From an uncultured virus (IMG/VR IMGVR_UViG_3300037112_000155) (taxonomy: Duplodnaviria > Heunggongvirae > Uroviricota > Caudoviricetes), in the IMG/VR virus record IMGVR_UViG_3300037112_000155, positions 62,001-123,616 of that record: 61,616 nucleotides of DNA. One strand, 5' to 3'. Numbering within the stretch: the first letter of the stretch is position 1; every line of letters starts with the position of its first letter. Positions 39,314 to 58,230 of this stretch are shown one piece after another. The notes beneath the pieces were generated by a model. The model searched no databases, was not told the DNA's origin, and worked only from the letters and a program-made list of their open reading frames with translations. Made by a program: the position numbers and the translations under genes.

Positions 39314-40042
39314 ATGCATATTGTCACTCCCTACGCGAAGATCATTCGCTTCATGGGCGAAGAATCGTTCCCCGCCGAAGCAGACGCAGGCGTTCAAGCT
39401 GTCCGCTTCATTGAAGAGACCGGCCGTAAGTGCTATCGCTCCGAAGGCGCGAGCACGCTGGACTCCTACAAGCAGTTCGTTGGTCAGCACGCGCTGGCCA
39501 GCCGGCACACGTCCATGCTGCGCTTCTCGGCCGTTGTGGTCGACTTCATGGTCGACCGCGGCGTCGCCCAGGAGATCACCCGTCATGGCAAAACGCTGGA
39601 CTTCCAACACGAGTCGCAGCGCTATTGCAACTACGTCAAGGATAAGTTCGGCAGCAGCGTCGGCTTCATCAAGCCGCGCAACCTGACCACGCTCCAGGAT
39701 CAGATCTGGACCATGGGCATGACGTACGCCGAGACCTACTACTTCGACATGCTGAAGGCGGATGCCAAGCCTCAGATCGCGGCCGATCTTCTGCCGCGGG
39801 CGACGGCAAGTCTGTTGACCTGCATCGGCAACTTCCAGGCCTGGCGTCACTTCCTGCTGACCAGGACAACTACCCAGTGCCATCCGAAAATGCTGGATGT
39901 CACCAACAACGACGCGCTCTCTGAGAGCGGCGAGATCCTGAGGAACAGCTTGCTCGATCAGTTCAAGGCGACGTTTCCCATCATCTTTGACGACATCCCG
40001 CACAGCGGCGACTTCGCCAAGAACATGCAGATGGCCCGATGA
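39314..40042 (+). CDS. thyX: FAD-dependent thymidylate synthase
   Basis: GRKCY.S; HTSML; DRGV.QEITRH; ESQRYCNY; WRHF...R. Confidence 0.88.
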   Translation: MHIVTPYAKIIRFMGEESFPAEADAGVQAVRFIEETGRKCYRSEGASTLDSYKQFVGQHALASRHTSMLRFSAVVVDFMVDRGVAQEITRHGKTLDFQHESQRYCNYVKDKFGSSVGFIKPRNLTTLQDQIWTMGMTYAETYYFDMLKADAKPQIAADLLPRATASLLTCIGNFQAWRHFLLTRTTTQCHPKMLDVTNNDALSESGEILRNSLLDQFKATFPIIFDDIPHSGDFAKNMQMAR

Positions 40043-41253
40043 ACAGCAACGAGGTACGAGTAATGAGACCAGCAACATTCAAGACCGGCCGGATCGAGAT
40101 CCCGGACTACTTTGGCGGCACGTTCCTCGACGTAAAAGCCATCGGCGAGCCCTACGGGGCGTACGAATACGTGATGACGCCGGAAGGCATTCGTCACGTG
40201 TTACCCGATGGTGCGACTGGTCTTAGACTGGTTGGCGGCGAGCTGACACATGAGGCAGAGAAGGCGATCTTCCTGAAGGTCGGCACGACTCCAATTGGCC
40301 GAATGACCATCCTGTCCGGCCCTTCCGGGAGCGGCAAGTCCACGGTTGCGTTCAAGCACATCCAGGACAACGGGCATGCGGTCCGGATCAACCGGGACGA
40401 CATCCGTCGGATGACCATCCCTCGTTGGGCTGCCTCGAAGGAGAAGTTCATCATCGAGGCTGAGAAGGCCATTGTCCGTGCGGCGCGGGAACAGGGTAGG
40501 GATGTCATCATCGACGACACCAACCTGACCCCGGGTCACCGGCAGATGTGGCTCGATTACGCCGAAGAGCTGTGCTTCCGCAAGGCCGAGGTGAAGTTCA
40601 TCGACACCCCGATCGCGGATTGTATTGCCCGCGACGCCATGCGCTTCGAAGGCAGACAGGTCGGCCGCCCGGTGATCGAGCGGCAGTACCTTCTGAGCGG
40701 GCGCCTGGATCTGAGCGGCCGTCCGGCTGTGGTCTGTGACCTCGACGGCACGCTGTTCAACCTGGATCACCGGAAGCACCTGGTGAGCGGGATCTGCGCT
40801 CCATGTTATGGCACCGGGAAGGCATTGGACGACCCGGGCGCTATGCCATGCGGGATCTGCCAGGGCACAGGCAAAGCCAAGAAGGATCACTACAAGTTCC
40901 TGCAGGAGTGCATCAACGACGAACCGGTCGAGATCATCCTGAACTGGCTGCACTCTCTCAGTGCCCTGGGCTTCATGATCATCCTGGTCAGCGGCCGCGA
41001 CATGAACTGCTGTGGTCGCGAGACCCTGGCGTCGCTGGACAAACACATGGTGCCGTTCGACCACTTGTTCATGCGCAAAGAACCGGCCCACATCACCGAT
41101 GTCGAGGTGAAAGCCACGATCCTCGAACAGATGCTGGCCTGCAAAGCGGAGATCGCATTTGCGATTGACGACAGGCTCTGTGTGGTTCAGATGTGGCGTG
41201 AACATGGCGTACGGGTCATTCCCGTCCGCTGCTCCGATACCGACCTCGAGTAG
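40039..41253 (+). CDS. Polynucleotide 5'-kinase/3'-phosphatase (T4 PseT-like)
   Basis: GPSGSGKST, NRDDIR, DDTNL; HAD DLDGT, SGR, IDDR. Confidence 0.92.
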   Translation: MNSNEVRVMRPATFKTGRIEIPDYFGGTFLDVKAIGEPYGAYEYVMTPEGIRHVLPDGATGLRLVGGELTHEAEKAIFLKVGTTPIGRMTILSGPSGSGKSTVAFKHIQDNGHAVRINRDDIRRMTIPRWAASKEKFIIEAEKAIVRAAREQGRDVIIDDTNLTPGHRQMWLDYAEELCFRKAEVKFIDTPIADCIARDAMRFEGRQVGRPVIERQYLLSGRLDLSGRPAVVCDLDGTLFNLDHRKHLVSGICAPCYGTGKALDDPGAMPCGICQGTGKAKKDHYKFLQECINDEPVEIILNWLHSLSALGFMIILVSGRDMNCCGRETLASLDKHMVPFDHLFMRKEPAHITDVEVKATILEQMLACKAEIAFAIDDRLCVVQMWREHGVRVIPVRCSDTDLE

Positions 41254-41303: not shown

Positions 41304-41552
41304 TTGTCCAGAGAATCAAAACGCTCCCTTCGTTATGACGTCTTCTCACCTGGCGCTAGCGCGCCTCTCCGTACAGTCCGAACGATTCAGCGAGCCAAGC
41401 GGCTCGCGCGAAGCCTCGGGTACGGAGCCATTGTGGAGCGTAAGTTATGCTGTCGTGAAAACGGCATGTTGATCTACAAACTCGACCGGTCCTGGTTCAT
41501 CGGTCCCTGCCGGCGAACGATGATGTCTCGTCCGAAAGTGAAACAATCATGA
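41304..41552 (+). CDS. Basic hypothetical protein
   Basis: Ends in an ATGA overlap with the cca gene. Confidence 0.5.
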   Translation: MSRESKRSLRYDVFSPGASAPLRTVRTIQRAKRLARSLGYGAIVERKLCCRENGMLIYKLDRSWFIGPCRRTMMSRPKVKQS

Positions 41553-42838
41553 TCCTCAGAATGCAACCGACCGTCCGTATGGTCGCGGTCGAGAAGCTGA
41601 TCTACCACCTACGCAAGGCCGGCAAAGAAGCCTACCTGATCGGCGGTTGCGTTCGAGATCGTATCCTGGCCAATCTCCCCAAAGACTATGACATCGTCAC
41701 CAACGCAGTGCCTGACGAGGTCATGGCAATCTTCCCAGATTGCTCCAAGCCCGTAGGCGCTAAGTTTGGCGTCGTTCTCGTCACGATCAATGAAGAGAGT
41801 TTCGAGGTCGCCACCTTCCGCGCCGAGGGCGCCTATTCTGACCACCGTCACCCTGATGCTGTGGTCTACAGCAAGACCCTGGCCGAGGACGTTCAGCGGC
41901 GGGACTTCACCATCAATGCCCTGGCCCTGGACATCGAGACCGGTGAGCTGGTGGATCTCACCGGCGGAGTCATGGACATCGCGCACAAGAAGATCCGCTG
42001 CATCGGGGATCCCAACCGGCGCTTTGAAGAAGACGCCCTGCGTTTACTCCGGGCAATCCGATTTGCCGCCCGGCTGGACTTCCAGATTGACGAGCCCACC
42101 TGGGGCGCGATGCGCGTCAATGCTCCCTTACTCGCTGAGATCAGCGGAGAACGGAAGCGCGAGGAGCTGATCGCGATGCTGAGCCAGCCCCGGGCCGTAC
42201 GCGCCCTGGAACTGCTTCTGCTCTCGAACCTGCTGGACTACCTGCTGCCGGAGCTAGATACCGACTTCGGAAGGGTTCTGCGTCGCCTCAACCAGATGCC
42301 TGCAATCTCCTGGTCCAGCGCCTACGGTCAGGCCGTCAAGGATCACGTCCTGATCGCATTGTCTCTGCTGTTCCTGGATCTCGGCACCACGGCACGGAAG
42401 AACGCGCTGCTGGGTCTGAAGTTCTCGACGGCGGATGCTGCCCAGATCACTAACATCATCACCAAGGCACAGGTTTGGAGCTGCATCCCGGACTGGAACC
42501 TGGCAGCACAGCGGCGCTATCGCCGCGATGCGGACTATGACCTGATTCGTCAGGTGGCGCTGCACGATTACTTCGCGCGGCCGGCTTACACCGGGGGCCA
42601 ACGGGCATTTCATCGTGTGGATCAGTTCATGAGCGCGGCGGGTTTGCCTGGGACTTATCCCAAGGTACTGCTCAACGGCGATGACTTGATTGCCCTGGGT
42701 TATAAGCCCAGTTCTGCGTTCGGCTTCGTTCTGCACAATCTCGAGGACGAACAGCTCGAAGAGAAGATCAAAACGCGTGAGGAAGCCGTGGCGTTTGTAA
42801 CGACACAGCTTCGGAACTCGCCAATGGCGGTCTCCTAA
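41549..42838 (+). CDS. cca: CCA-adding tRNA nucleotidyltransferase (class II)
   Basis: GGCVRD..DYD; EVATFR; RRDFTINA; RFEEDALRLLRAIRF; SGER..EE. Confidence 0.9.
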   Translation: MILRMQPTVRMVAVEKLIYHLRKAGKEAYLIGGCVRDRILANLPKDYDIVTNAVPDEVMAIFPDCSKPVGAKFGVVLVTINEESFEVATFRAEGAYSDHRHPDAVVYSKTLAEDVQRRDFTINALALDIETGELVDLTGGVMDIAHKKIRCIGDPNRRFEEDALRLLRAIRFAARLDFQIDEPTWGAMRVNAPLLAEISGERKREELIAMLSQPRAVRALELLLLSNLLDYLLPELDTDFGRVLRRLNQMPAISWSSAYGQAVKDHVLIALSLLFLDLGTTARKNALLGLKFSTADAAQITNIITKAQVWSCIPDWNLAAQRRYRRDADYDLIRQVALHDYFARPAYTGGQRAFHRVDQFMSAAGLPGTYPKVLLNGDDLIALGYKPSSAFGFVLHNLEDEQLEEKIKTREEAVAFVTTQLRNSPMAVS

Positions 42839-43273: not shown

Positions 43274-43605
43274 TGAAGGGCTGCCGAGAGCACTGCCCGC
43301 ACTGCGGTGCGGTCTTAGACAGGACACCTCTGTTCAAGCATTTGAACAAGTGTCCGCGTCGTCCCAAGCTCAAGATCAAGGCCACTCGCCGAGTCGTGAC
43401 GATGTGCATTGAGGCCCGACTGGCCTGTGGGTGCCACGTGAGGCGTTGGTTTGGCGACATCCCGGATGGCCATGTTCATGCTGAAACGGTTCATGCATGC
43501 GAGGCCTGGAAGGATCACAAGTACGACCTGACAGCTCAGGAACAGAAGATGAGCCCGTACGGGAACAAGGTCATTCGCCACGCAAAGGGGCAGACACGAA
43601 TATGA
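43273..43605 (+). CDS. Cys/His-rich hypothetical protein
   Basis: CPHC..H..C; CGCH; overlaps both neighbours. Confidence 0.6.
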   Translation: MKGCREHCPHCGAVLDRTPLFKHLNKCPRRPKLKIKATRRVVTMCIEARLACGCHVRRWFGDIPDGHVHAETVHACEAWKDHKYDLTAQEQKMSPYGNKVIRHAKGQTRI

Positions 43606-44810
43606 AGATGATTTGGACGGACGCACTCAAGCAGGAGATCGCCAATGGTTACATCGGTATTCAACACCACCCGACTCTGCCGTTACGGATCTTCAACTAT
43701 ACCCATAAGGCTACGATCGATGAGCGTTGGAGCACGGAGATCTGCTTCTGCCGCGGTCTGATCATCGATGATACCGATGAGGTCATCGCGCGTCCGCAAC
43801 CGAAGTTCTTCAACCTGGGCCAGACGGTCGACATCGTTGGCCAAGGACTATTGGAATTCTCAGAGGAGTTCGTCCTGGGCATTGCCCGGGCCTACGGCAA
43901 CGAGCTGGAGTTCACCGACAAGATCGACGGCCAGATGGGCATCGTCTGGAACTACAAGGAGCACTGGGGCGTTGCCACTCGCGGGTCGTTCACCTCGGAC
44001 GGCGCGATCTGGGCGACTGCCAAGTTCCAGAAGTTCGTCAAGTATGGCATGGTCGAGTGCATCCCCAAGGGATTGACCTTGATCGTTGAGATCGTCGCCA
44101 AGCATCTCCGCATCGTGATTCCTTACGACTACGAGACCCTGGTGCTTTTGACGGCCGTCATGAACGACACCGGTGACGAGTTGCGCCACTGGCAACTGGA
44201 AGGCCTCTGGAAGGAGCTGAACGCAGGCGCCAAGGGGAAACCCTGGTGCCGTGTAGTGCCTGCCTTCTCGGGCAAGACTCTGATGGCCTGCAGGCAGGAT
44301 AAGGACCTGACCCGTGAAGGTTATGTGGTCTCAGTTCGCCGCGGCGGACAACCTCCGCTCAAGGTGAAGATCAAGCTCGAGGAGTATCTTCGGCTGCATC
44401 GCCTGGTCACGAATGTGACGCCCCAGATGATCTGGGAGCAGATGGGCGATCCGCTCAAGCCCTGGTTGAGGCCGACGCACCTGCAGTCGCAGTTGCCGCC
44501 TCACTTCAAGACCTGGATCGAGGAATGGCAGAGGAGACTCTATCAGGCTTTTCACTTCCAGATCTGTAAGGCGCTGGATGTTCTGGCCTGGATTACACCA
44601 TTGCGCGCCGAGGTCAAGGATGACCGGGAGTTCTATCGCCTGGTGATCGAACGGGACATGGTCCTGGGCCCGATCGCCATGCTGATGATGGACAACCGGA
44701 TCTGGGAGGCCCATGAGGCTCTCTGGAAGATCGTTCGGCCTCACGGCCGGGACGTCTTCTACATCGATGGCCAGGGCGAGGACAAGCCCACTCACCTCAT
44801 CGCAGCATAA
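43602..44810 (+). CDS. RNA ligase, T4 Rnl1 family
   Basis: IFNY; CRGLI; PKFFN; KIDG; ATRGSF.S; EGYVV; KVKIK..EY. Confidence 0.9.
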   Translation: MKMIWTDALKQEIANGYIGIQHHPTLPLRIFNYTHKATIDERWSTEICFCRGLIIDDTDEVIARPQPKFFNLGQTVDIVGQGLLEFSEEFVLGIARAYGNELEFTDKIDGQMGIVWNYKEHWGVATRGSFTSDGAIWATAKFQKFVKYGMVECIPKGLTLIVEIVAKHLRIVIPYDYETLVLLTAVMNDTGDELRHWQLEGLWKELNAGAKGKPWCRVVPAFSGKTLMACRQDKDLTREGYVVSVRRGGQPPLKVKIKLEEYLRLHRLVTNVTPQMIWEQMGDPLKPWLRPTHLQSQLPPHFKTWIEEWQRRLYQAFHFQICKALDVLAWITPLRAEVKDDREFYRLVIERDMVLGPIAMLMMDNRIWEAHEALWKIVRPHGRDVFYIDGQGEDKPTHLIAA

Positions 44811-46624: not shown

Positions 46625-46984
46625 ATGGCGAAGAGCCTGATTGGAAGCGTGACCGACACCACCTGGTCGGACGCCGTAGGCAAAGCGGATGGCCTTACCC
46701 TGGTGCTTTTCGGAGCGGCGTGGTGTGGCCCGTGCGAGCAGATCCGAGTGAATGTCGAGGTCATCGCCAAGCAGAACGCCGGCGTGGTCAACGTGCTTTA
46801 TTACGACGTCGACCTGACCAATCACCGGGCAGCTTCCTACAACGTCCGCGGGGTTCCTACCCTGATCCTGTTCGACGGCGAGAACAAGCTGGCTACTCTG
46901 ACCGGGATGCAGCCCGTCGCCAAGATCCAGAAGGGGATTGACTCCCATCTTTCCCAGGAGGTTGTCGTTGCGAACCCTCTTTAG
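46625..46984 (+). CDS. trxA: Thioredoxin
   Basis: WCGPC; VRGVPTLILF; AAGGAG RBS. Confidence 0.92.
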   Translation: MAKSLIGSVTDTTWSDAVGKADGLTLVLFGAAWCGPCEQIRVNVEVIAKQNAGVVNVLYYDVDLTNHRAASYNVRGVPTLILFDGENKLATLTGMQPVAKIQKGIDSHLSQEVVVANPL

Positions 46985-48065
46985 TTGCCTGTACGGGTCG
47001 AGCCTGTACGGCACGACCATTCCTACCTCTGACCGTGACATCAAGCACGTGATCCTGCCGAAGTTCTCGGATCTCCTGCTGGGCCGTGCGCCCAAGAACA
47101 AGTACCGGTCCACCAAGACCGGCACCGGAAAGAACTCGGCCGAGCACATTGATGTCGAGAACATCCCGCTCCACATCCTGGCGCGGGACTTCATGGGCGG
47201 TCAGAGCTATGCCCTGGAGTTGGTGTTCGCTGTCGACTTCAATGGGGCCGAGCAGACGATCTATGACCCGCGGTTTCGCCAGTTCTGTAATGAGCTGCGC
47301 GAGCGCTTCCTAACCTCACAGATCCGGGCGATTGCCCGGTACTGCGCGGATCAGGCTGGTTTGTACTCCTTGAAGGGCGAGCGGTTGAATGCCGTGCTCG
47401 CCACCATCGAACTGCTCAAAGGCTTCCGGGCCGATGAGCGCCTGTTCATGGTCCAACCGTTCCTTGAAGAGAAGGCGCGGTTGATTGAGAAGGAGTTTCC
47501 GGAATACTTCCACGTTACGGAGTACGATGCCTCCGGTAAGGGTGCCATGCGCCCCTGCATCAAACTGCTCGACAAGATCCTGCCCTATACGTCGAGCTTC
47601 CGCTACAACCTGCAAACTGCAGAGGCTCTGCTCGCCAAGTTTGGCAGCCGCGCTAAGCAGGCGTCAGAGAGCAACGTGGACTGGAAGGCCACGTCTCATG
47701 CTCTCCGTATCGTGAACGAGGGAATCACCATACTCGCGACCGGGAAACTGACGTTTCCGCTTCCTGACCCGCTGCGCACTTACCTGCGCCAAGTGAGACT
47801 CGGGGAGGTCCCTTATCAGCAGGTACTAACCCAGATTGAAACCAGTCTGGCCACACTCGAAGAAATGCGTGGCATCTCGGAGTTACCAGAACTTACACCA
47901 GAGCTGCAATTGGATCTGGAAGTCTGGCTCCTTGGCTGGTTGGGTTATTTCTACTCCGACGTCCTCAGACAGAGGTGGAGTATTGTTCGCATCCTGGAGT
48001 TCTGCAGAGCCACTGTCTCTCGTACGTGGACTCCTCTCTCCCAATTCTTCAAGTCCTCCCCGTAA
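46938..48065 (+). CDS. Pol-beta superfamily nucleotidyltransferase (RlaP/NrdC.11-like)
   Basis: YGSSLYGT....SDRD; DWKA.SHALR. Confidence 0.8.
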   Translation: MTPIFPRRLSLRTLFSCLYGSSLYGTTIPTSDRDIKHVILPKFSDLLLGRAPKNKYRSTKTGTGKNSAEHIDVENIPLHILARDFMGGQSYALELVFAVDFNGAEQTIYDPRFRQFCNELRERFLTSQIRAIARYCADQAGLYSLKGERLNAVLATIELLKGFRADERLFMVQPFLEEKARLIEKEFPEYFHVTEYDASGKGAMRPCIKLLDKILPYTSSFRYNLQTAEALLAKFGSRAKQASESNVDWKATSHALRIVNEGITILATGKLTFPLPDPLRTYLRQVRLGEVPYQQVLTQIETSLATLEEMRGISELPELTPELQLDLEVWLLGWLGYFYSDVLRQRWSIVRILEFCRATVSRTWTPLSQFFKSSP

Positions 48066-49296: not shown

Positions 49297-49599
49297 ATGG
49301 CAGAGTTAGCAGAAGCGAAGGCGTTGAAGCTCGAAGACGAAACCATCAAGGTGATCTGGACGGTCCTGTTCAAGGACTATCCACCGACCAACGCCGCTGT
49401 TGTGTTGAAGGCCATGCGTGACTGGTACCTGGAGTACGGCAACGGTCCAGTGTTGCGCGCCCTGACCGACTGGTTGACCCAGATCGTAGGGTACAGCGCG
49501 GACATCGTTGGCACTTACAAACTCGGGCAGACAGAGTTCACCGAGAAGACAGCACTCACCGCCGAGTCGAACCCCTGTGGAGCAGTCCATGCCGGCTAA
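49297..49599 (+). CDS. Hypothetical protein
   Basis: GGAG RBS. Confidence 0.65.
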   Translation: MAELAEAKALKLEDETIKVIWTVLFKDYPPTNAAVVLKAMRDWYLEYGNGPVLRALTDWLTQIVGYSADIVGTYKLGQTEFTEKTALTAESNPCGAVHAG

Positions 49600-49963
49600 A
49601 GAGAAGATCGAAGGCATTACCCCGGGCGACTGGTACGTCCTGATCATCCCGGACGGCGTTCCCGGCGCCGGCAAGTTCTTCGTAGCGGCCAAACCATACG
49701 AAGGGCATCCGCACCTGAACCACACGCGGAACTTCGACATCGGCGCCGATGAGAACTATCCCACTAAGTGGGCGGACTGCCATGCGATTTCCGCAACACC
49801 TAAGTTGATCGCTGCGCTCAAGGTTGCGCAGGAGCTGCTGATCCGGGCAACCAACACGCCGCCCGCGTCAGACGAGCGCTGGGCGCAGATCGCCGACGCT
49901 CTGGATCAGGCTACAAATCCGCCGGAAGCACCAGCTAGCGTGTGGAAGTGGGAGGAAGAATGA
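49589..49963 (+). CDS. Hypothetical phage protein
   Basis: TPGDW ... AD..AISATP.L..ALK pattern. Confidence 0.7.
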   Translation: MPAKEKIEGITPGDWYVLIIPDGVPGAGKFFVAAKPYEGHPHLNHTRNFDIGADENYPTKWADCHAISATPKLIAALKVAQELLIRATNTPPASDERWAQIADALDQATNPPEAPASVWKWEEE

Positions 49964-50818
49964 GTAGGTTCTGGAACATCTGGGGAAGTGGATGCCTGGT
50001 CGGTTTCGTAATCGCCTGGTTCATCTTCGGGAAGTAGGAGACATGAAGCTCTGGAACTGGATTGCACCGATCCGCTATCGCGGGCCGGACGCCTGGTATG
50101 ACCGGCAGGTGTTCTTCATCAACGATAACGGCAACCGGGAGCTGCGCGGCCGCTGGGGTCTGCTGTTGGTAATCGGGCTCATGCTGGGCAGTACCTACGT
50201 TGCAACCCACACAAGATAGCCCGCAAGAGCTATGAGGTCCTTCGGGGCTGATGATCTTGCAACCGTCTCCGTCGCGCCCACCGCAAGCAAGGCTAGCTGG
50301 CCTCCAATGGCCAGCGAACACGTCAAGGGCGGTGGGCCCCTCGGGACTCAAGGAGAATAGCGTGGCAGTCCTCAGCTCGATGTCCAAACGATCCACGAAG
50401 CAGTTGCAGGCGCTGTTCAACGGCCGCGGCGGCATCGCTGACACGTATCGAGACGGAGGGCCGTTCACGCCCGAGTTCAAAGAGATGGTTGTGGCCTATC
50501 ACGCGGAGTGCGTGAAGCGCCAGATCCCATCCGGCCTGGTGGAAGAAGATCAGGTATTTCCATTGCCGCCGAGGAGGGCCGCATGAATGAGATTCGTAAT
50601 GACGCCTACGCGATCGCGTGGATCCTGGGCATCGGGCTGGCCTGGTACTGGCTGATACTGTGGTCCAGCGCGGTCGGAAAGTGGCTGCTGAATATGCATA
50701 ACACGCAGGTCCGCACCACGGACCGCTGCAAGCCGCTGAGCCGGGCGCTGGCGCCTGTAATCCGGCAGGGACCGGTGCGCAAACCTTTCCCAGTCGAACG
50801 CTACATTCTGGAGGACTA

Positions 50819-51028
50819 ATGGCATCTGAACCGCACATCGTCATCCCTGAGTGGATGACGCCTGAGCAAGTCGAGGCAATCGGCAAGTTATTCGATCGCA
50901 ATCCGGATGGGTCTGTTGATCGCCATGCATTCTTTGGCCGCGTTCAATCCTACGGAGACTACTGCGGACTGACCTGGGTAAACGGGATGTTCATCGGTAT
51001 CGAGAAAGACGGGTACACGCACTCATGA
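50819..51028 (+). CDS. Conserved small phage protein
   Basis: C-terminal GMFIGIEKDGYTHS. Confidence 0.75.
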   Translation: MASEPHIVIPEWMTPEQVEAIGKLFDRNPDGSVDRHAFFGRVQSYGDYCGLTWVNGMFIGIEKDGYTHS

Positions 51029-51243
51029 TCGACAAGTTGATCTGTTCTGTAGTCGGCCATCGTCCGGCGTTCGGCTACGGCCATCAGGAAGGCAAAGGCT
51101 ACTTCAGCACCAAGTTCGTTGCCGTGGACGGAACCAACCGGATCCACGCCAGCCTGCATTGCAGCTGCGAACGCTGCGGCCGGGTCTATCAGGTGGGCAT
51201 GATCCATGTACTCAGCCTTGCTGAGCTTCTGGGGCGAACCTAG
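51025..51243 (+). CDS. Small Zn-binding-like protein
   Basis: LICSVVGH...CERCG. Confidence 0.6.
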   Translation: MIDKLICSVVGHRPAFGYGHQEGKGYFSTKFVAVDGTNRIHASLHCSCERCGRVYQVGMIHVLSLAELLGRT

Positions 51244-51444
51244 ATGGAACGTGCTGTTCAACTCATGCGCGCCCACACAGTGGAGTCGATCAAGGAATTG
51301 GCCGACTATGTTCACAACACGGATCGCCCTTGCTCGACGTTTACGGACGCGCGACTGGGGTACATCTTTGAACAGATTCAAGTGATCAACGCTTTGCAGA
51401 AACTGAAATCAAACTGGTCGCCACGAGTCTTGGAGATCAAGTAG
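51244..51444 (+). CDS. Hypothetical protein
   Basis: Abuts upstream stop. Confidence 0.5.
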   Translation: MERAVQLMRAHTVESIKELADYVHNTDRPCSTFTDARLGYIFEQIQVINALQKLKSNWSPRVLEIK

Positions 51445-51450
51445 TTCATG

Positions 51451-51573
51451 GGGCCGGTAGTTCAGCGGTTAGAACAGCGGGCCAACTGAAGGCAATCCAC
51501 ACGTTGGGTCAACCAGCAACTGGCTAAAGCCGAGCAAACCCGTAGGTCGCAGGTTCGAATCCTGCCCGGCCCC
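51451..51573 (+). tRNA. tRNA-like gene with a 57-nt anticodon loop (about 50-nt insertion); isotype undetermined
   Basis: Acceptor GGGCCGG/CCGGCCC; D stem GTTC/GAAC; anticodon stem GCGGG/CCCGT; T arm GCAGG-TTCGAAT-CCTGC. Confidence 0.75.
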
Positions 51574-51587
51574 ACTAGGAGAATGAG

Positions 51588-51812
51588 ATGAGTAACGAGT
51601 TAGCGAAGGACCTGCTCGAAGCGATCGTCGTATACAACCGGGTCAAGAATGGCGACTCCGGCGATGCCGAGCACGATGCCGGCGTCGAGATGCAGAATGC
51701 CGCGATCACCTACCTTCGGTCCGAGGCCATCAACAACGTGGACCTGACCGACCTGGTGGCCAGCTTCGGCGACACGCTCGATGAAGACGTCGAGGAAGAC
51801 GAGGAAGAGTAG
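51588..51812 (+). CDS. Acidic hypothetical protein
   Basis: AGGAG RBS. Confidence 0.7.
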   Translation: MSNELAKDLLEAIVVYNRVKNGDSGDAEHDAGVEMQNAAITYLRSEAINNVDLTDLVASFGDTLDEDVEEDEEE

Positions 51813-51814
51813 CC

Positions 51815-52066
51815 ATGACCGCAGACCAAGTGGCAAAGCTGAAGCCTGGCGACAAGGTGTTCTGGCATGACCCGGATGAGGAACTGTGCAGCCGGGTTCT
51901 GACCATCAAGCACATCACGATCGACGGCGAGGATAGTGCCCTGATCTCTGATGTGGGCGGTTCCGACCTCGGCGTGCTGTTTGACGAGATCAACTATTAC
52001 ATGGAAATCCCTTATCCTGCGCCGCTTGGCCGTGATGGCAAACCGTTGGGCGGATCGAGGAAATGA
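51815..52066 (+). CDS. Hypothetical protein
   Basis: LKPGDKVFWHDPD motif. Confidence 0.65.
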   Translation: MTADQVAKLKPGDKVFWHDPDEELCSRVLTIKHITIDGEDSALISDVGGSDLGVLFDEINYYMEIPYPAPLGRDGKPLGGSRK

Positions 52067-52695
52067 TGTCAGAACAAACCTGGTATAGGACTGAAGAACG
52101 TGCGTTCGCTCCCGGTATCGCTGAAGGGTGGCCAACAGTCATTCCGGCGCCGCATTCCAAGCACGGACGCCTGGTCCGCCAGAGCGGCGACCCAGACCGC
52201 TTGCATGCCATCATTCAGGGATGCGCTCAGTGCCTGCCTGAAGACTGGGGCATCACACTCGAGATCGAGCGTGAAGGCGGCGGAGTCGATCTGTACGATC
52301 CCACCGGATCTCGTGTGGACTTCCCATCGAACAGGGAGACCCTGCACGAACAGTTCTCGGATGCCCTACAGTATGCGATCGAGAAAGCGGCCAAGCAGGC
52401 GCTGGTCGTCAATTACCCGGATCCCCAGACCTGGCTGATCAAGCGGGACATCGCCAATAACAAGCTGGTGTTCTTTCAATCGAAGGTGACCCGGGAAACT
52501 GGAGTTTACTCCGAGAGCATGGCCATTGGCGTGGGAACGCAGCATTACGCTGACCATCCCAATTGGTGCATTCTTCGGGTTACCGCGATGGCATCCCCGC
52601 AGGCTCGTGGGGATCAGCGGACCTGGCTCGAAGACTACCTTTCCGGACCGGACTGGCAGGATGAAATCGGAATGAAGGAGCAAGTCAGCAAATGA
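52063..52695 (+). CDS. Hypothetical protein
   Basis: GAGG RBS; ATGA overlaps. Confidence 0.65.
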   Translation: MMSEQTWYRTEERAFAPGIAEGWPTVIPAPHSKHGRLVRQSGDPDRLHAIIQGCAQCLPEDWGITLEIEREGGGVDLYDPTGSRVDFPSNRETLHEQFSDALQYAIEKAAKQALVVNYPDPQTWLIKRDIANNKLVFFQSKVTRETGVYSESMAIGVGTQHYADHPNWCILRVTAMASPQARGDQRTWLEDYLSGPDWQDEIGMKEQVSK

Positions 52696-52952
52696 GTGAG
52701 TTGATCAGTTACGACCTGCCGTTCGGAGTCAAGATCGGTGTCAACGACCGAACCAAGGATCACGAGCCGGGCACGCCGAACAAGGTGGCCACCATCTCGT
52801 CGAACCTGGACACCGAGATCAGCTACGAGTCTGCGGACACGCTGGAGTGGTTCCTCATGAACCTGGCCGATCAGGGTCTGGACATGAACGATCGTCGCTT
52901 CGGCTACGCCCTGGAGGCGACGGTCAAGACGCTCAAGGAACGTCCGAGCTAG
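52692..52952 (+). CDS. Hypothetical protein
   Basis: AAGGAG upstream; ATGA overlap. Confidence 0.65.
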   Translation: MSELISYDLPFGVKIGVNDRTKDHEPGTPNKVATISSNLDTEISYESADTLEWFLMNLADQGLDMNDRRFGYALEATVKTLKERPS

Positions 52953-52981
52953 CTGGATTATGCGATGGGGCTGTGATCTTC

Positions 52982-53110
52982 TATACTAGACAGTGAAGAT
53001 GATCCCCGTGACCCAATCCGCGCAGTGGAATCCGATGAATGGTGACGCCGGGGATCCGTAGTCGATCGCAAGATCGTGACTACGCACCCTCGGCTAACCC
53101 CGAGGGTTTT
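52982..53110 (+). promoter_or_regulatory. Candidate leader peptide/attenuator upstream of the tRNA array
   Basis: TATACT -10 box at 52982; ORF 52993-53061; stems 53001-53056 and 53057-53084; terminator 53086-53110. Confidence 0.5.
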
Positions 53111-53128
53111 GTCGTTTTAGCACCACGA

Positions 53129-53204
53129 TGACGAGTAGCTCAGTTGGTAGAGCGGCGCCCTGTTAAGGCGTTGGTCGCAGGTTCGACCCCTGCCTCGTCA
53201 GCCA
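53129..53204 (+). tRNA. tRNA-Asn(GTT)
   Basis: Full cloverleaf; loop CT-GTT-AA; G73; encoded CCA. Confidence 0.95.
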
Positions 53205-53237
53205 ATCTTAGTGAGCACTGAGTGGTGCTCACATCAC

Positions 53238-53334
53238 GCAGGGTAAGGATCTTTCTGTTCGAGTCGTGACACACTCACGTCTTTGACGCTCGCACGGTGT
53301 AGATCCCTTGGGACGTGAGAACACCCCTCCCTGC
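53238..53334 (+). ncRNA. Candidate pseudoknotted small RNA in the tRNA array
   Basis: GCAGGG/CCCTGC closing stem; GGATCT/AGATCC; crossing pair CTCACGTC/GACGTGAG. Confidence 0.45.
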
Positions 53335-53352
53335 ACCTCTTTGAACCTCCAT

Positions 53353-53401
53353 GGGGCCGCGCGGGCCGTCACCTGCGGGAGGATGGCAACAGGCTCCACC
53401 A
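53353..53401 (+). ncRNA. 49-nt tRNA-Ala-like acceptor minihelix ending in ACCA
   Basis: GGGGCC/GGCTCC with G3-U70, A73 and CCA; internal GCCGTC/GATGGC stem. Confidence 0.55.
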
Positions 53402-53406
53402 AGTTC

Positions 53407-53483
53407 GGCGGTGTAGCTCAGCTGGTTAGAGCGCGACACTCATAACGTCGAGGTCCGTGGTTCAAGTCCACGCACCGCCACCA
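53407..53483 (+). tRNA. tRNA-Met(CAT) (Ile2 not excluded)
   Basis: Cloverleaf; loop CT-CAT-AA; A31-C39 mismatch; CCA. Confidence 0.9.
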
Positions 53484-53732
53484 AGCAGCGCCCTGGAGAC
53501 CGAGGCGACTCTAAGTATCGGTCCAACGCATGCAACCGGAGCTGCTACTCCGATGGTTGCTACAGGCTGTCCGTTGAGCAGAACGGGTTGGCGCGACCGG
53601 CGGGCGCAACTCCCGCCTCCCTTCTTAGGTGTTTCACCCGATTGTTCTGTTTCAGCATGTGTTGAAAATGGCAGTAATGGTGAATGGCGTCCTGATCCGA
53701 GGCGCGGTATCAAGTATCGGTCACCAACCCAC

Positions 53733-53818
53733 AGGGGTGAGGGGCAACGGTTCGGCCCAGCGGTCTCCAAAACCGCCGACGCAAGTCACTGCAGGTTCGA
53801 ATCCTGTCACCCCTGCCA
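53733..53818 (+). tRNA. tRNA-Trp(CCA) with long variable arm
   Basis: AGGGGTG/CACCCCT; loop CT-CCA-AA; G73; CCA; variable hairpin GAC-GCAA-GTC. Confidence 0.88.
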
Positions 53819-53840
53819 ACCGCTTTACCCGAGGAATTGA

Positions 53841-54572
53841 ATGTTACCTACCGACATGAAATGGCCCACCGACCTGGTGATTGTTCGCCACGGCCAGTCC
53901 CAGCGCAACGTAGAGAAGGAACAGGCGAAGGCCAAAGGCCTGCTGAAGTCCTACGTGGGCGACATCCGGGACCAGGACACACCCCTGACGCCCCTGGGCT
54001 TCGGCCAGGCGCTCCACGTAGGTGTGGAGCTGCGCAACCTCTACCCGTTCGACGTCGTGCTCACCTCGCCCTATCTGCGCACCAAGCAGACAACTGACCA
54101 GATCCTCAAGGGCCTGGGCGTAGAGAACAAGGCGGGCCTCGAGCGCTTTCGGCCGGGCATCAAGGTCGTCGAGGACGAACGGCTGCGCGAGATCGAGTTC
54201 GGCATCTTCGACGGGCTGACCCGTGAGGGTCTGCAGGCGAAGTATCCGGAGGAAGTCACCCGGCGGAACAAAGAGGGCAAGTATTGGTATCGCCCACCTG
54301 GCGGGGAGTCGCGCCCGGACGTCGGCATGCGGCTTCACAGCATTCTGGGCACCCTGAGCCGCGACTACGCCGGCGAGAAGGTCCTGGTGGTCACCCACAG
54401 CGTTGTGGTGCTGGTGCTCCGCAAGCTGCTGGAGCGCTGGACCGAGGAACAGTATCTCGATGTTGATGCCAACGACGACGTCAAGAACTGTTCGATCACG
54501 CACTATACGGCCGGAGGGAACAGCCACAAACTGATCCTGAAGTCCTACAACACCGTCTGTTACCCGGAGTGA
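53841..54572 (+). CDS. Histidine phosphatase (phosphoglycerate mutase family)
   Basis: VRHGQS; SPY.RT.QT; LRE..FG; PGGES; VVTH; NCS. Confidence 0.92.
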   Translation: MLPTDMKWPTDLVIVRHGQSQRNVEKEQAKAKGLLKSYVGDIRDQDTPLTPLGFGQALHVGVELRNLYPFDVVLTSPYLRTKQTTDQILKGLGVENKAGLERFRPGIKVVEDERLREIEFGIFDGLTREGLQAKYPEEVTRRNKEGKYWYRPPGGESRPDVGMRLHSILGTLSRDYAGEKVLVVTHSVVVLVLRKLLERWTEEQYLDVDANDDVKNCSITHYTAGGNSHKLILKSYNTVCYPE

Positions 54573-55162
54573 ACATGTTAGCGAATGCAGTGAACCCGAA
54601 CATCCCCAAGGCCAAGACGCGTGTCGACGTGCCTGCCGTGATCCTCAACAACCCGAAATACTCGCACAACATGGCCGGTGTGATCCGAGCTTGCTCCTGC
54701 TGGGGTGTTCCGACTTTGCTATGGACCGGAAGCCGCGTTGTTCCTGAGCAGATGGATCGTCTGCCGCGGGAAGAACGCATGAAGGGCTACAAGGACGTGC
54801 ACTGGCAGCGAACGGAGCGTCCGTTCGATCTGCTTCCCGAGGGAGTGATCCCGGTGTGCATCGAGTTGGTCGAGAACAGCGTGCCATTGACTACCTTCGA
54901 GCATCCTGAGAATGCGGTGTACGTGTTCGGGCCGGAAGATGGAAGCGTGAAGCAGGTGATTCGCCGCTTCTGCCATCAGTTCGTTCACATCCCGACACAC
55001 CATTGCCTCAATCTGTCGCAGGCTGTGAACCTGATCCTGGGTGATCGTCGTATGAAACGCCAGCTTTCCGGCGTGGAAGAGATTGTTCCGCTGAGTCAGA
55101 TGCTGCACGAGACGCGTGGCTATACCAGCGAGATTGATGTACTTGGATGGGACGGAAAGTAA
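54569..55162 (+). CDS. SpoU/TrmH-family RNA methyltransferase
   Basis: P....N...VIRAC; YVFGPEDG; IP...CLNLSQAV. Confidence 0.88.
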   Translation: MNMLANAVNPNIPKAKTRVDVPAVILNNPKYSHNMAGVIRACSCWGVPTLLWTGSRVVPEQMDRLPREERMKGYKDVHWQRTERPFDLLPEGVIPVCIELVENSVPLTTFEHPENAVYVFGPEDGSVKQVIRRFCHQFVHIPTHHCLNLSQAVNLILGDRRMKRQLSGVEEIVPLSQMLHETRGYTSEIDVLGWDGK

Positions 55163-58027: not shown

Positions 58028-58100
58028 GTTGCCCGTAGCTCAGCTGGTAGAGCGCCGACCTGTGGCGTCGGTGGTCGAGAGTTCGATCCTCTCCAGGGAT
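58028..58100 (+). pseudogene. tRNA-His(GTG) with disrupted 3' acceptor strand
   Basis: G-1, D arm, CCGAC-CTGTGGC-GTCGG and T arm intact; 3' strand CAGGGAT instead of CGGGCAA; no CCA. Confidence 0.8.
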
Positions 58101-58230
58101 TCGGAGAGCATTACAAGACGTTTCCAATCAAGCTCAAAGGACTGGAATTGAACCCCCGAATCTGAACCCAAAGGAGTTCGCAAGCCCGACTCGAACCGAG
58201 GTACGGGGCCTTGTATCGAGGGCATACAAT

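Follow-up and report, generated by a model that had tools for sequence, protein, structure and literature searches.

Inserts in the tRNA genes of bacteriophages have been in print since 2019, and the available part of the report concerned offers no mechanism for them (PMC6784885). As described there, the tRNAs of Lak megaphages contain 'enigmatic' introns, unexplained inserts in the anticodon loop that are neither of the group I nor of the bulge-helix-bulge (BHB) type (Devoto et al. 2019, PMC6784885). Changes at the same place have also been described in phage tRNAs that escape host anticodon nucleases, which according to the accessible text of that study carry mutations in the anticodon loop (PMC10264068). 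In addition, PNKP, Rnl1, a CCA-adding enzyme and a nucleotidyltransferase form a common RNA-repair kit of jumbo phages, directed against host tRNA nucleases, as summarized in the sections available of a further article (PMC7824862). Here we describe, from a large phage of peat soil, a gene with the shape of an isoleucine-type tRNA in which 57 unrelated bases take the place of the anticodon loop, so that reading of codons is probably ruled out. Its clear tRNA-Ile2 ancestry, the disappearance of both the anticodon and the Ile/Met discriminator and the retention of the whole tRNA fold make the gene informative, and they distinguish it from a simple intron.

A complete cloverleaf without an anticodon loop

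The window, a stretch of 61,616 nucleotides, covers the latter half of an IMG/VR virus record of 123.6 kb, whose completeness is put at 57%. A complete tRNA cloverleaf is present on its plus strand at 51450-51573, with G(-1) included (Table 1). In an Rfam search the tRNA family RF00005 (gathering score 29) matched 51451-51573 (+) over model positions 1-71 with 55.8 bits and an E value of 2.5e-9 for the window, and the alignment contains one 56-nt insertion, sited in the anticodon loop. A first-pass annotation, made from the sequence alone, had described intact acceptor, D and T arms and an intact anticodon stem enclosing a 57-nt loop at 51482-51538. Both parts of this description are borne out, the first by the Rfam score and by direct reading, the second by direct reading. 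All stem pairs are intact (21/21), and the nucleotides of the tertiary core, U8, A14, G18G19, G15:C48, G46 and the T-loop TTCGAAT, are present. The whole RNA has a predicted folding energy of -49.9 kcal/mol, more stable than nearly all shuffles (z -2.53; 2/200 shuffles equally good), and the gene is free of overlap with any ORF of at least 40 aa.

Default ARAGORN does not call the gene. With introns allowed, a check that the annotation had proposed, it is called with a 50-nt intron, under the arbitrary identity 'Cys(aca)', and its acceptor stem is drawn with 8 bp, G(-1):C73 among them. The extra pair between these nucleotides (G 51450, C 51573), raised earlier as a possibility, can thus form. 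G(-1):C73 is the main HisRS determinant in Escherichia coli. The target therefore follows the tRNA-His rule in this pair, while the GUG anticodon of tRNA-His has no counterpart, as no GTG occurs in the 57-nt loop.

Table 1. Parts of the tRNA-like gene, its flanking features and the RNA-repair genes, in window coordinates
Feature	Position	Strand	Remarks
PNKP (kinase + HAD phosphatase)	40039-41253	+	HAD_PNKP 8.4e-23, AAA_33 2.5e-17
CCA-adding enzyme / poly(A) polymerase family	41549-42838	+	PolyA_pol 4.2e-38
Rnl1-type RNA ligase	43497-44810	+	RNA_lig_T4_1 2e-8
Nucleotidyltransferase (phrog_388)	46938-48065	+	9e-53
Upstream 66-aa ORF	51244-51444	+	stop codon 5 nt before G(-1)
G(-1)	51450	+	pairing with C73 possible as 8th acceptor pair, cf. 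bacterial tRNA-His
5' body	51451-51481	+	acceptor 5' strand, U8 A9, D arm, A26, anticodon-stem 5' strand; Rfam alignment
Acceptor stem	51451-57 with 51566-72	+	GGGCCGG with CCGGCCC, 7/7 Watson-Crick
D arm	51460-75	+	GTTC-AGCGGTTA-GAAC, D stem 4/4 paired
Anticodon stem	51477-81 with 51539-43	+	GCGGG with CCCGT, 4 Watson-Crick + 1 G-U
Loop in place of 7-nt anticodon loop	51482-51538	+	57 nt; no CAT, no U33; weak structure; single copy
3' body	51539-51573	+	anticodon-stem 3' strand, variable loop, T arm, acceptor 3' strand, C73
Variable loop	51544-48	+	AGGTC
T arm	51549-65	+	GCAGG-TTCGAAT-CCTGC, T stem 5/5
Discriminator C73	51573	+	followed by ACT, no encoded CCA
Shine-Dalgarno sequence	51577-81	+	AGGAG, 4 nt past C73
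Downstream 74-aa ORF	ATG 51588; with Shine-Dalgarno sequence 51577-51812	+	
First downstream terminator-like hairpin	53086-53107	+	

Descent from tRNA-Ile2

Judged by sequence comparison, the body of the target evidently goes back to a tRNA(CAU) lineage, that of tRNA-Ile2 with its lysidine; this ancestry and the change from A73 to C73 go beyond what had been annotated before. A pattern of the D arm and T loop, run on one genome per prokaryote species, gave at least 120 loci, 118 of which, among the matches listed, are tRNA(CAT) genes; the matches listed come mostly from Alphaproteobacteria and in some cases from Acidobacteriota. Up to 58 of 66 exon positions of the target are identical in bacterial tRNA-Ile2-type genes, namely in alphaproteobacterial members, and 28/31 in the 5' body (51451-51481), as compared with 39-48 of 66 for 25 other phage tRNAs (from the window, G004 and G001) and with 45 and 43 of 66 for the elongator Met and initiator tRNAs of one Reyranella genome. 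The CAU tRNAs of this Reyranella genome (G013) are the initiator, in two copies, elongator Met and the target-family member; being the third CAU tRNA, the last is tRNA-Ile2 by elimination. The acceptor stems of the target and of tRNA-Ile2 share C4:G69 and C5:G68, which are determinants for TilS in E. coli.

A search with the target 3' exon retrieved, from three viral contigs (L228, L229 and L233), a phage tRNA(CAU) that is intact; its anticodon loop is CTCATAA and its discriminator A73. Its acceptor stem, variable loop and T arm are those of the target, and 51545-51572 of the target is identical to it. Another viral contig, L230 (25.7 kb), holds the 3' half of a tRNA(CAU) with a CTCATAA loop and a target-like T arm and acceptor 3' strand; this gene has no recognisable 5' half and is possibly an attachment-site remnant.

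Where the stems of the target differ from those of its relatives, at 6:67, at 11:24 and throughout the anticodon stem, the differences are compensatory. What has changed is the loop, which has no CAT anywhere, the discriminator, which is C73 instead of A73, and the tail, which is not CCA. The identity sets of IleRS and MetRS consist of the anticodon and A73. With no CAT in 51482-51538 and C73 in place of A73, both sets have been lost from the target.

The loop and its possible excisions

The first-pass annotation had pointed to small stems in the loop, CCAAC/GTTGG, CCAG/CTGG and GGCT/AGCC. These exist, but they amount to chance structure: the anticodon arm with its insert does not fold beyond shuffles (z -0.95; 36/200 shuffles equally good), which makes the stems unremarkable. 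The reported lack of U33 holds for every way of closing the loop. In the 7-nt loops that can be joined from a loop prefix and suffix (CC-GCA-AA, CC-ACA-AA, CC-AAC-AA and similar), position 33 is C or A and the anticodons are GCA, ACA, AAC and AAA; none of the 8 joins has U at 33, so that no single excision among them gives a 7-nt loop with U33. An internal 5-bp stem with a 7-nt loop of anticodon-loop look was not found within the insert either. The 7-nt anticodon loop, U33 and anticodon of a decoding tRNA are hence all missing from the target.

The same annotation had found no canonical BHB and had considered the insert far too short for a group I intron, and both statements stand. A scan gave no full BHB motif and 8 partial ones (shuffle mean 2.2), none of which connects the two junctions. 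A group I intron was taken to require a ribozyme core and 200 nt or more; the loop has 57 nt, and with E values of up to 10 admitted the only Rfam families that match the region are tRNA, YrlA (weakly, with 17.3 bits where the cut-off is 69) and two plastid UTR families, none of them an intron or a ribozyme. For tmRNA, with its tag ORF and pseudoknots, ARAGORN -m made no call and Rfam gave no match at the target. An 11-codon frame in the loop (GCA...TAA), considered as the tag of a mini-tmRNA, is expected by chance and has no tmRNA call behind it, and a CAC 'specifier' for tRNA-His is likewise expected by chance. The insert was also considered as a repeat or mobile hairpin and rejected, since G000 and G001 contain one copy each; no homologue of it was found outside the target's own lineage.

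The phage, its strains and the genomic context

The finding is confined to one lineage. An identical target gene is present in two other viral contigs (G001 and G002; loci L001/L002), and one allele is common to all five samples examined (the window, G001, G002 and contigs of runs X3 and X18). All target homologues found are identical copies; no insert-free allele and no diverged homologue was found, and a strict exon pattern had no match in genome_contigs. The phage was present in 20/24 listed runs across 19 studies, from peat, permafrost or soil where labelled. Its relative G001 measures 214.3 kb and is 99% complete. Near the end of this contig a tyrosine integrase gene (L226:6204-7504, G001:210504-211804) lies directly before tRNA-Arg(CCG). 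This arrangement suggests that the jumbo phage, probably a temperate one, had integrated at a tRNA gene. No homologue was found for the protein in the host flank.

Over 51000-52000 we compared four runs, three labelled as RNA and one of DNA, as contigs only. The strain in these runs is about 3% diverged over this interval, with 0 differences in 51424-51751 and no joints. In the RNA-labelled run X18, one contig of 731 nt covers 51370-52000 with the target unspliced, which as a contig proves neither transcription nor the absence of splicing; similarly, no joined form occurs in contigs of runs X18, X19, X20 and X3, and contigs cannot show that splicing is absent. The identical block 51424-51751 also takes in 164 nt of the downstream ORF, synonymous sites included, and divergence against G001 is patchy. 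From these two features the block looks like a recombination patch and not like demonstrable selection on the RNA.

The 66-aa ORF upstream of the target is a real gene, since 13/18 of its strain differences fall at third codon positions (hand count). No sigma-70-like promoter was found in 49500-54000, and with the first terminator at 53086 the target lies inside a run of small ORFs on the same strand. No Pfam or PHROG function was found for the neighbouring ORFs, and a 210-aa neighbour protein has no homologue beyond itself and no Atlas lead. The other tRNA genes of the window encode CCA in five cases out of six. The tRNA-His(gtg) gene at 58029-58102 has 3 mismatches in 7 acceptor pairs, no CCA and an Rfam score of 48.9 bits and is possibly a decayed gene; as a second aberrant tRNA gene it indicates that decayed tRNA genes do occur in this phage. 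At 53733-53818 there is a tRNA-Trp(cca) of 86 nt, drawn with an extended variable arm that is base-paired, an unusual feature in Trp; the interval 53841-55162, among the tRNA genes, encodes a histidine-phosphatase-family protein and a SpoU-type RNA methyltransferase.

A tRNA mimic or a decaying gene

We tentatively favour the hypothesis that the target encodes a processed, non-decoding tRNA mimic, in line with a tRNA-shaped decoy or regulatory RNA, the second of two readings offered in the first-pass annotation. The mimic fits best because the stems and tertiary nucleotides have been kept and the anticodon loop, discriminator and tail rewritten, and because no excision yields a usable tRNA. 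A single-copy gene of tRNA-Ile2 shape and ancestry, devoid of anticodon and A73, is present in every strain sampled. According to the hypothesis, it would be transcribed within the run of small ORFs, and the RNA would be released by RNase P and a 3' endonuclease and provided with CCA by a host or phage CCA-adding enzyme. The mature RNA, perhaps charged, would then occupy an enzyme that binds tRNA; the most plausible candidates are a nuclease of the host directed at tRNA and a synthetase. Several observations speak against such a mimic. The 57-nt loop is identical in every copy found and folds no better than shuffles, the identical block with its look of a recombination patch runs on into the downstream ORF, and the phage has the aberrant His(gtg) gene besides. 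Moreover, G(-1) and C73 could have arisen together by chance, with a likelihood that we estimate at roughly 1 in 10.

As an alternative, the target might be a pseudogene: the loop of a phage tRNA(CAU) gene would have been replaced not long ago, through an indel or by illegitimate recombination, and the 214-kb genome would not yet have lost the remnant. We regard this as somewhat unlikely. It would account for the lack of anticodon, U33 and CCA, the last in a window where most tRNA genes encode CCA, and for an insert that is unstructured, unique and without homologues; the defective-looking His(gtg) gene and the lack of any sign of selection on the target locus also agree with it. However, every stem pair and the tertiary nucleotides are intact, whereas the loop, the discriminator and the 3' tail differ from those of every relative, a combination that neutral decay is unlikely to produce unless the event in the loop was very recent. 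A simple recent insertion is contradicted by the ends of the loop, which do not sum to the ancestral CTCATAA. In addition, the allele is fixed in the five samples examined, and the gene is tightly packed between two ORFs.

The proposal of splicing, and expanded tRNA genes in other phages

In the first of its two readings, the first-pass annotation had interpreted the insert as a protein-spliced intron sealed by the phage PNKP/Rnl1 pair. Profile matches support its statement that the genome encodes both enzymes, and a CCA-adding enzyme was found as well (Table 1). In its full form, the proposal would be a new protein-dependent intron, in which an endonuclease cuts the loop twice and PNKP and Rnl1 of the phage heal and seal the exons; we consider this unlikely. 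The insert does lie at the usual site of tRNA introns, with the genes of PNKP, Rnl1 and the CCA-adding enzyme 6.6-11 kb upstream, and if the loop were cut to leave CC|GCAAA, the exons would be joined at 33/34, which we take to be the site repaired by T4 Rnl1. Unexplained inserts in other phage tRNAs, as described in the available part of the Lak report, point in the same direction (Devoto 2019, PMC6784885). Nevertheless, the interpretation is not supported. No excision produces a canonical loop, with C or A at 33 in every join and anticodons (GCA, ACA, AAC, AAA) that fit neither an Ile2 body nor C73, and the region has neither a BHB nor, with E values of up to 10 admitted, a match to an intron or ribozyme family of Rfam. 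The enzymes point the same way. EndA-family endonucleases (PF01974) are absent from G000 and from the 99%-complete G001, as are RtcB and, in a separate search, TROVE/Rsr proteins (PF05731); control genomes were positive in each case. The PNKP, Rnl1, CCA-adding enzyme and nucleotidyltransferase of the phage are an ordinary jumbo-phage RNA-repair set.

The ligase is also not linked to inserts elsewhere. The nearest Rnl1 relatives are 42-47% identical. Five whole viral records of such relatives contain no insert-bearing tRNA, all 37 tRNA matches being at most 88 nt long, and near 58 Rnl1-relative loci (544 kb) there was no genuine case among 30 ARAGORN tRNAs. Two ARAGORN 'intron' calls near these relatives were false, as L044 is without an Rfam match and L057 is a class II tRNA. 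Conversely, neither Rnl1 nor RtcB was found in any of 21 other phage records with expanded tRNA-like genes (0/21; the positive control worked).

These records derive from a search of viral sequences for the target-type D arm followed by 12-42 extra nucleotides before the T loop, which gave 21 loci, 17-18 of them distinct. At L196 (G009:73098-73205) a phage tRNA(CAU) is split as CTC|35 nt|ATAA, between C34 and A35, by an insert that contains a hairpin and whose excision restores CTCATAA exactly, and this locus favours the splicing proposal. Most other expanded loci, like the target, cannot be restored by one excision. Covariation is seen inside the expansion in two groups, the paralogues of G010 and the L199/L200/L216 family, so such expansions can be selected, which counts in favour of the mimic.

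A second match of 109 nt is present in the same genome as L196 (G009:73471-73579). The two paralogues L221:650-766 (-) and L221:3303-3422 (-), of 112-115 nt, are the sole tRNA matches of G010 (32 kb, 94% complete). In each, 7-8 covarying base pairs extend the anticodon stem, an A / GA internal loop is conserved, and the distal loop has about 30 nt. The viral contigs L199, L200, L203, L208 and L216 (8-181 kb) carry tRNA-Ile(TAT) genes with encoded CCA, in which the position of the variable arm holds a second hairpin with the 7-nt loop CTGATAA, the anticodon loop of Ile-GAU. Both arms covary between L199, L200 and L216, and by its sequence the L199-type gene looks like a tRNA with two anticodon-like arms.

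None of the inserts at the 21 loci resembles that of the target. Motifs shared with L202 (AGGCAAT, CCAG-N3-CTGG) were rejected, since the pattern has only 3 matches, 2 of them from the target's own lineage; kinship with L202 was rejected too, as the contigs have no protein homology and the local alignment has z 1.6, with 31/300 shuffles equally good. The CCGAGC shared with G010 stands in a different structural register, and L006/L007, from a spaced pattern, are a truncated tRNA beside tRNA-Tyr, unrelated to the target.

In a bolder version, which we think quite unlikely, the scaffold of a tRNA-Ile2 would have been remodelled by a temperate jumbo phage into a histidine-accepting RNA (G(-1):C73) with no anticodon, one that would be cut from the mRNA, tailed with CCA and used, charged or uncharged, as a decoy against host tRNA-directed defence; or else the target would be the first member of a protein-dependent intron class resealed at 33/34 by the phage PNKP/Rnl1. 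That the cloverleaf is only an RNase P / RNase Z cut site separating or stabilising the flanking mRNAs would suit its position between a stop codon 5 nt before it and a Shine-Dalgarno sequence 4 nt after it, and also a gene with no promoter of its own and its first terminator at 53086, but is very unlikely given that acceptor and T arms suffice for both enzymes and that the D arm, the anticodon stem and the tertiary nucleotides have all been kept.

A stable RNA would mean that phages convert tRNA genes into mimics that do not decode, and the target would offer a defined substrate for finding the enzyme, of host or phage, that binds it. If the RNA is spliced, a cut-and-rejoin route of tRNA splicing would operate in bacteria or their viruses.

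Comparison with known systems

We found no paper on anticodon-less tRNA-Ile2 derivatives in phages, and the only parallel found in print is that of the Lak introns, as far as the available text of the report goes (PMC6784885). The lysidine-modified tRNA-Ile2 (CAU) of bacteria and phages is like the target in C4:G69, C5:G68, D arm, variable loop and T arm. In contrast to its CAU, 7-nt loop and A73, the target has no CAU, a 57-nt loop, C73 and no CCA.

The Lak inserts and that of the target are both unexplained inserts in the anticodon loop of phage tRNA genes. According to the accessible part of the Lak report, the former are defined by alignment to insert-free copies and leave a normal tRNA (PMC6784885), whereas for the target no insert-free allele was found and no excision gives a normal loop. 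The T4 pathway of PrrC, PNKP and Rnl1 has the same enzyme pair as the target genome, which adds a CCA-adding enzyme and a nucleotidyltransferase. However, this pathway repairs a nicked anticodon loop, and nothing observed for the target ties it to the removal of 50 nt.

The phage tRNAs that escape anticodon nucleases are, like the target, altered in the anticodon loop, in their case in a counter-defence setting (PMC10264068). From the portion of that study available we infer that they keep 7-nt loops and decoding, whereas the target is probably non-decoding. Lastly, the tRNA-like domain of tmRNA and YrlA/Y RNA are examples of tRNA mimicry by non-decoding RNA, as proposed for the target. In contrast to these, the target has no tmRNA call, a YrlA score of 17.3 against 69 bits and no TROVE/Rsr partner gene, and it retains the topology of a true tRNA with an open acceptor end.
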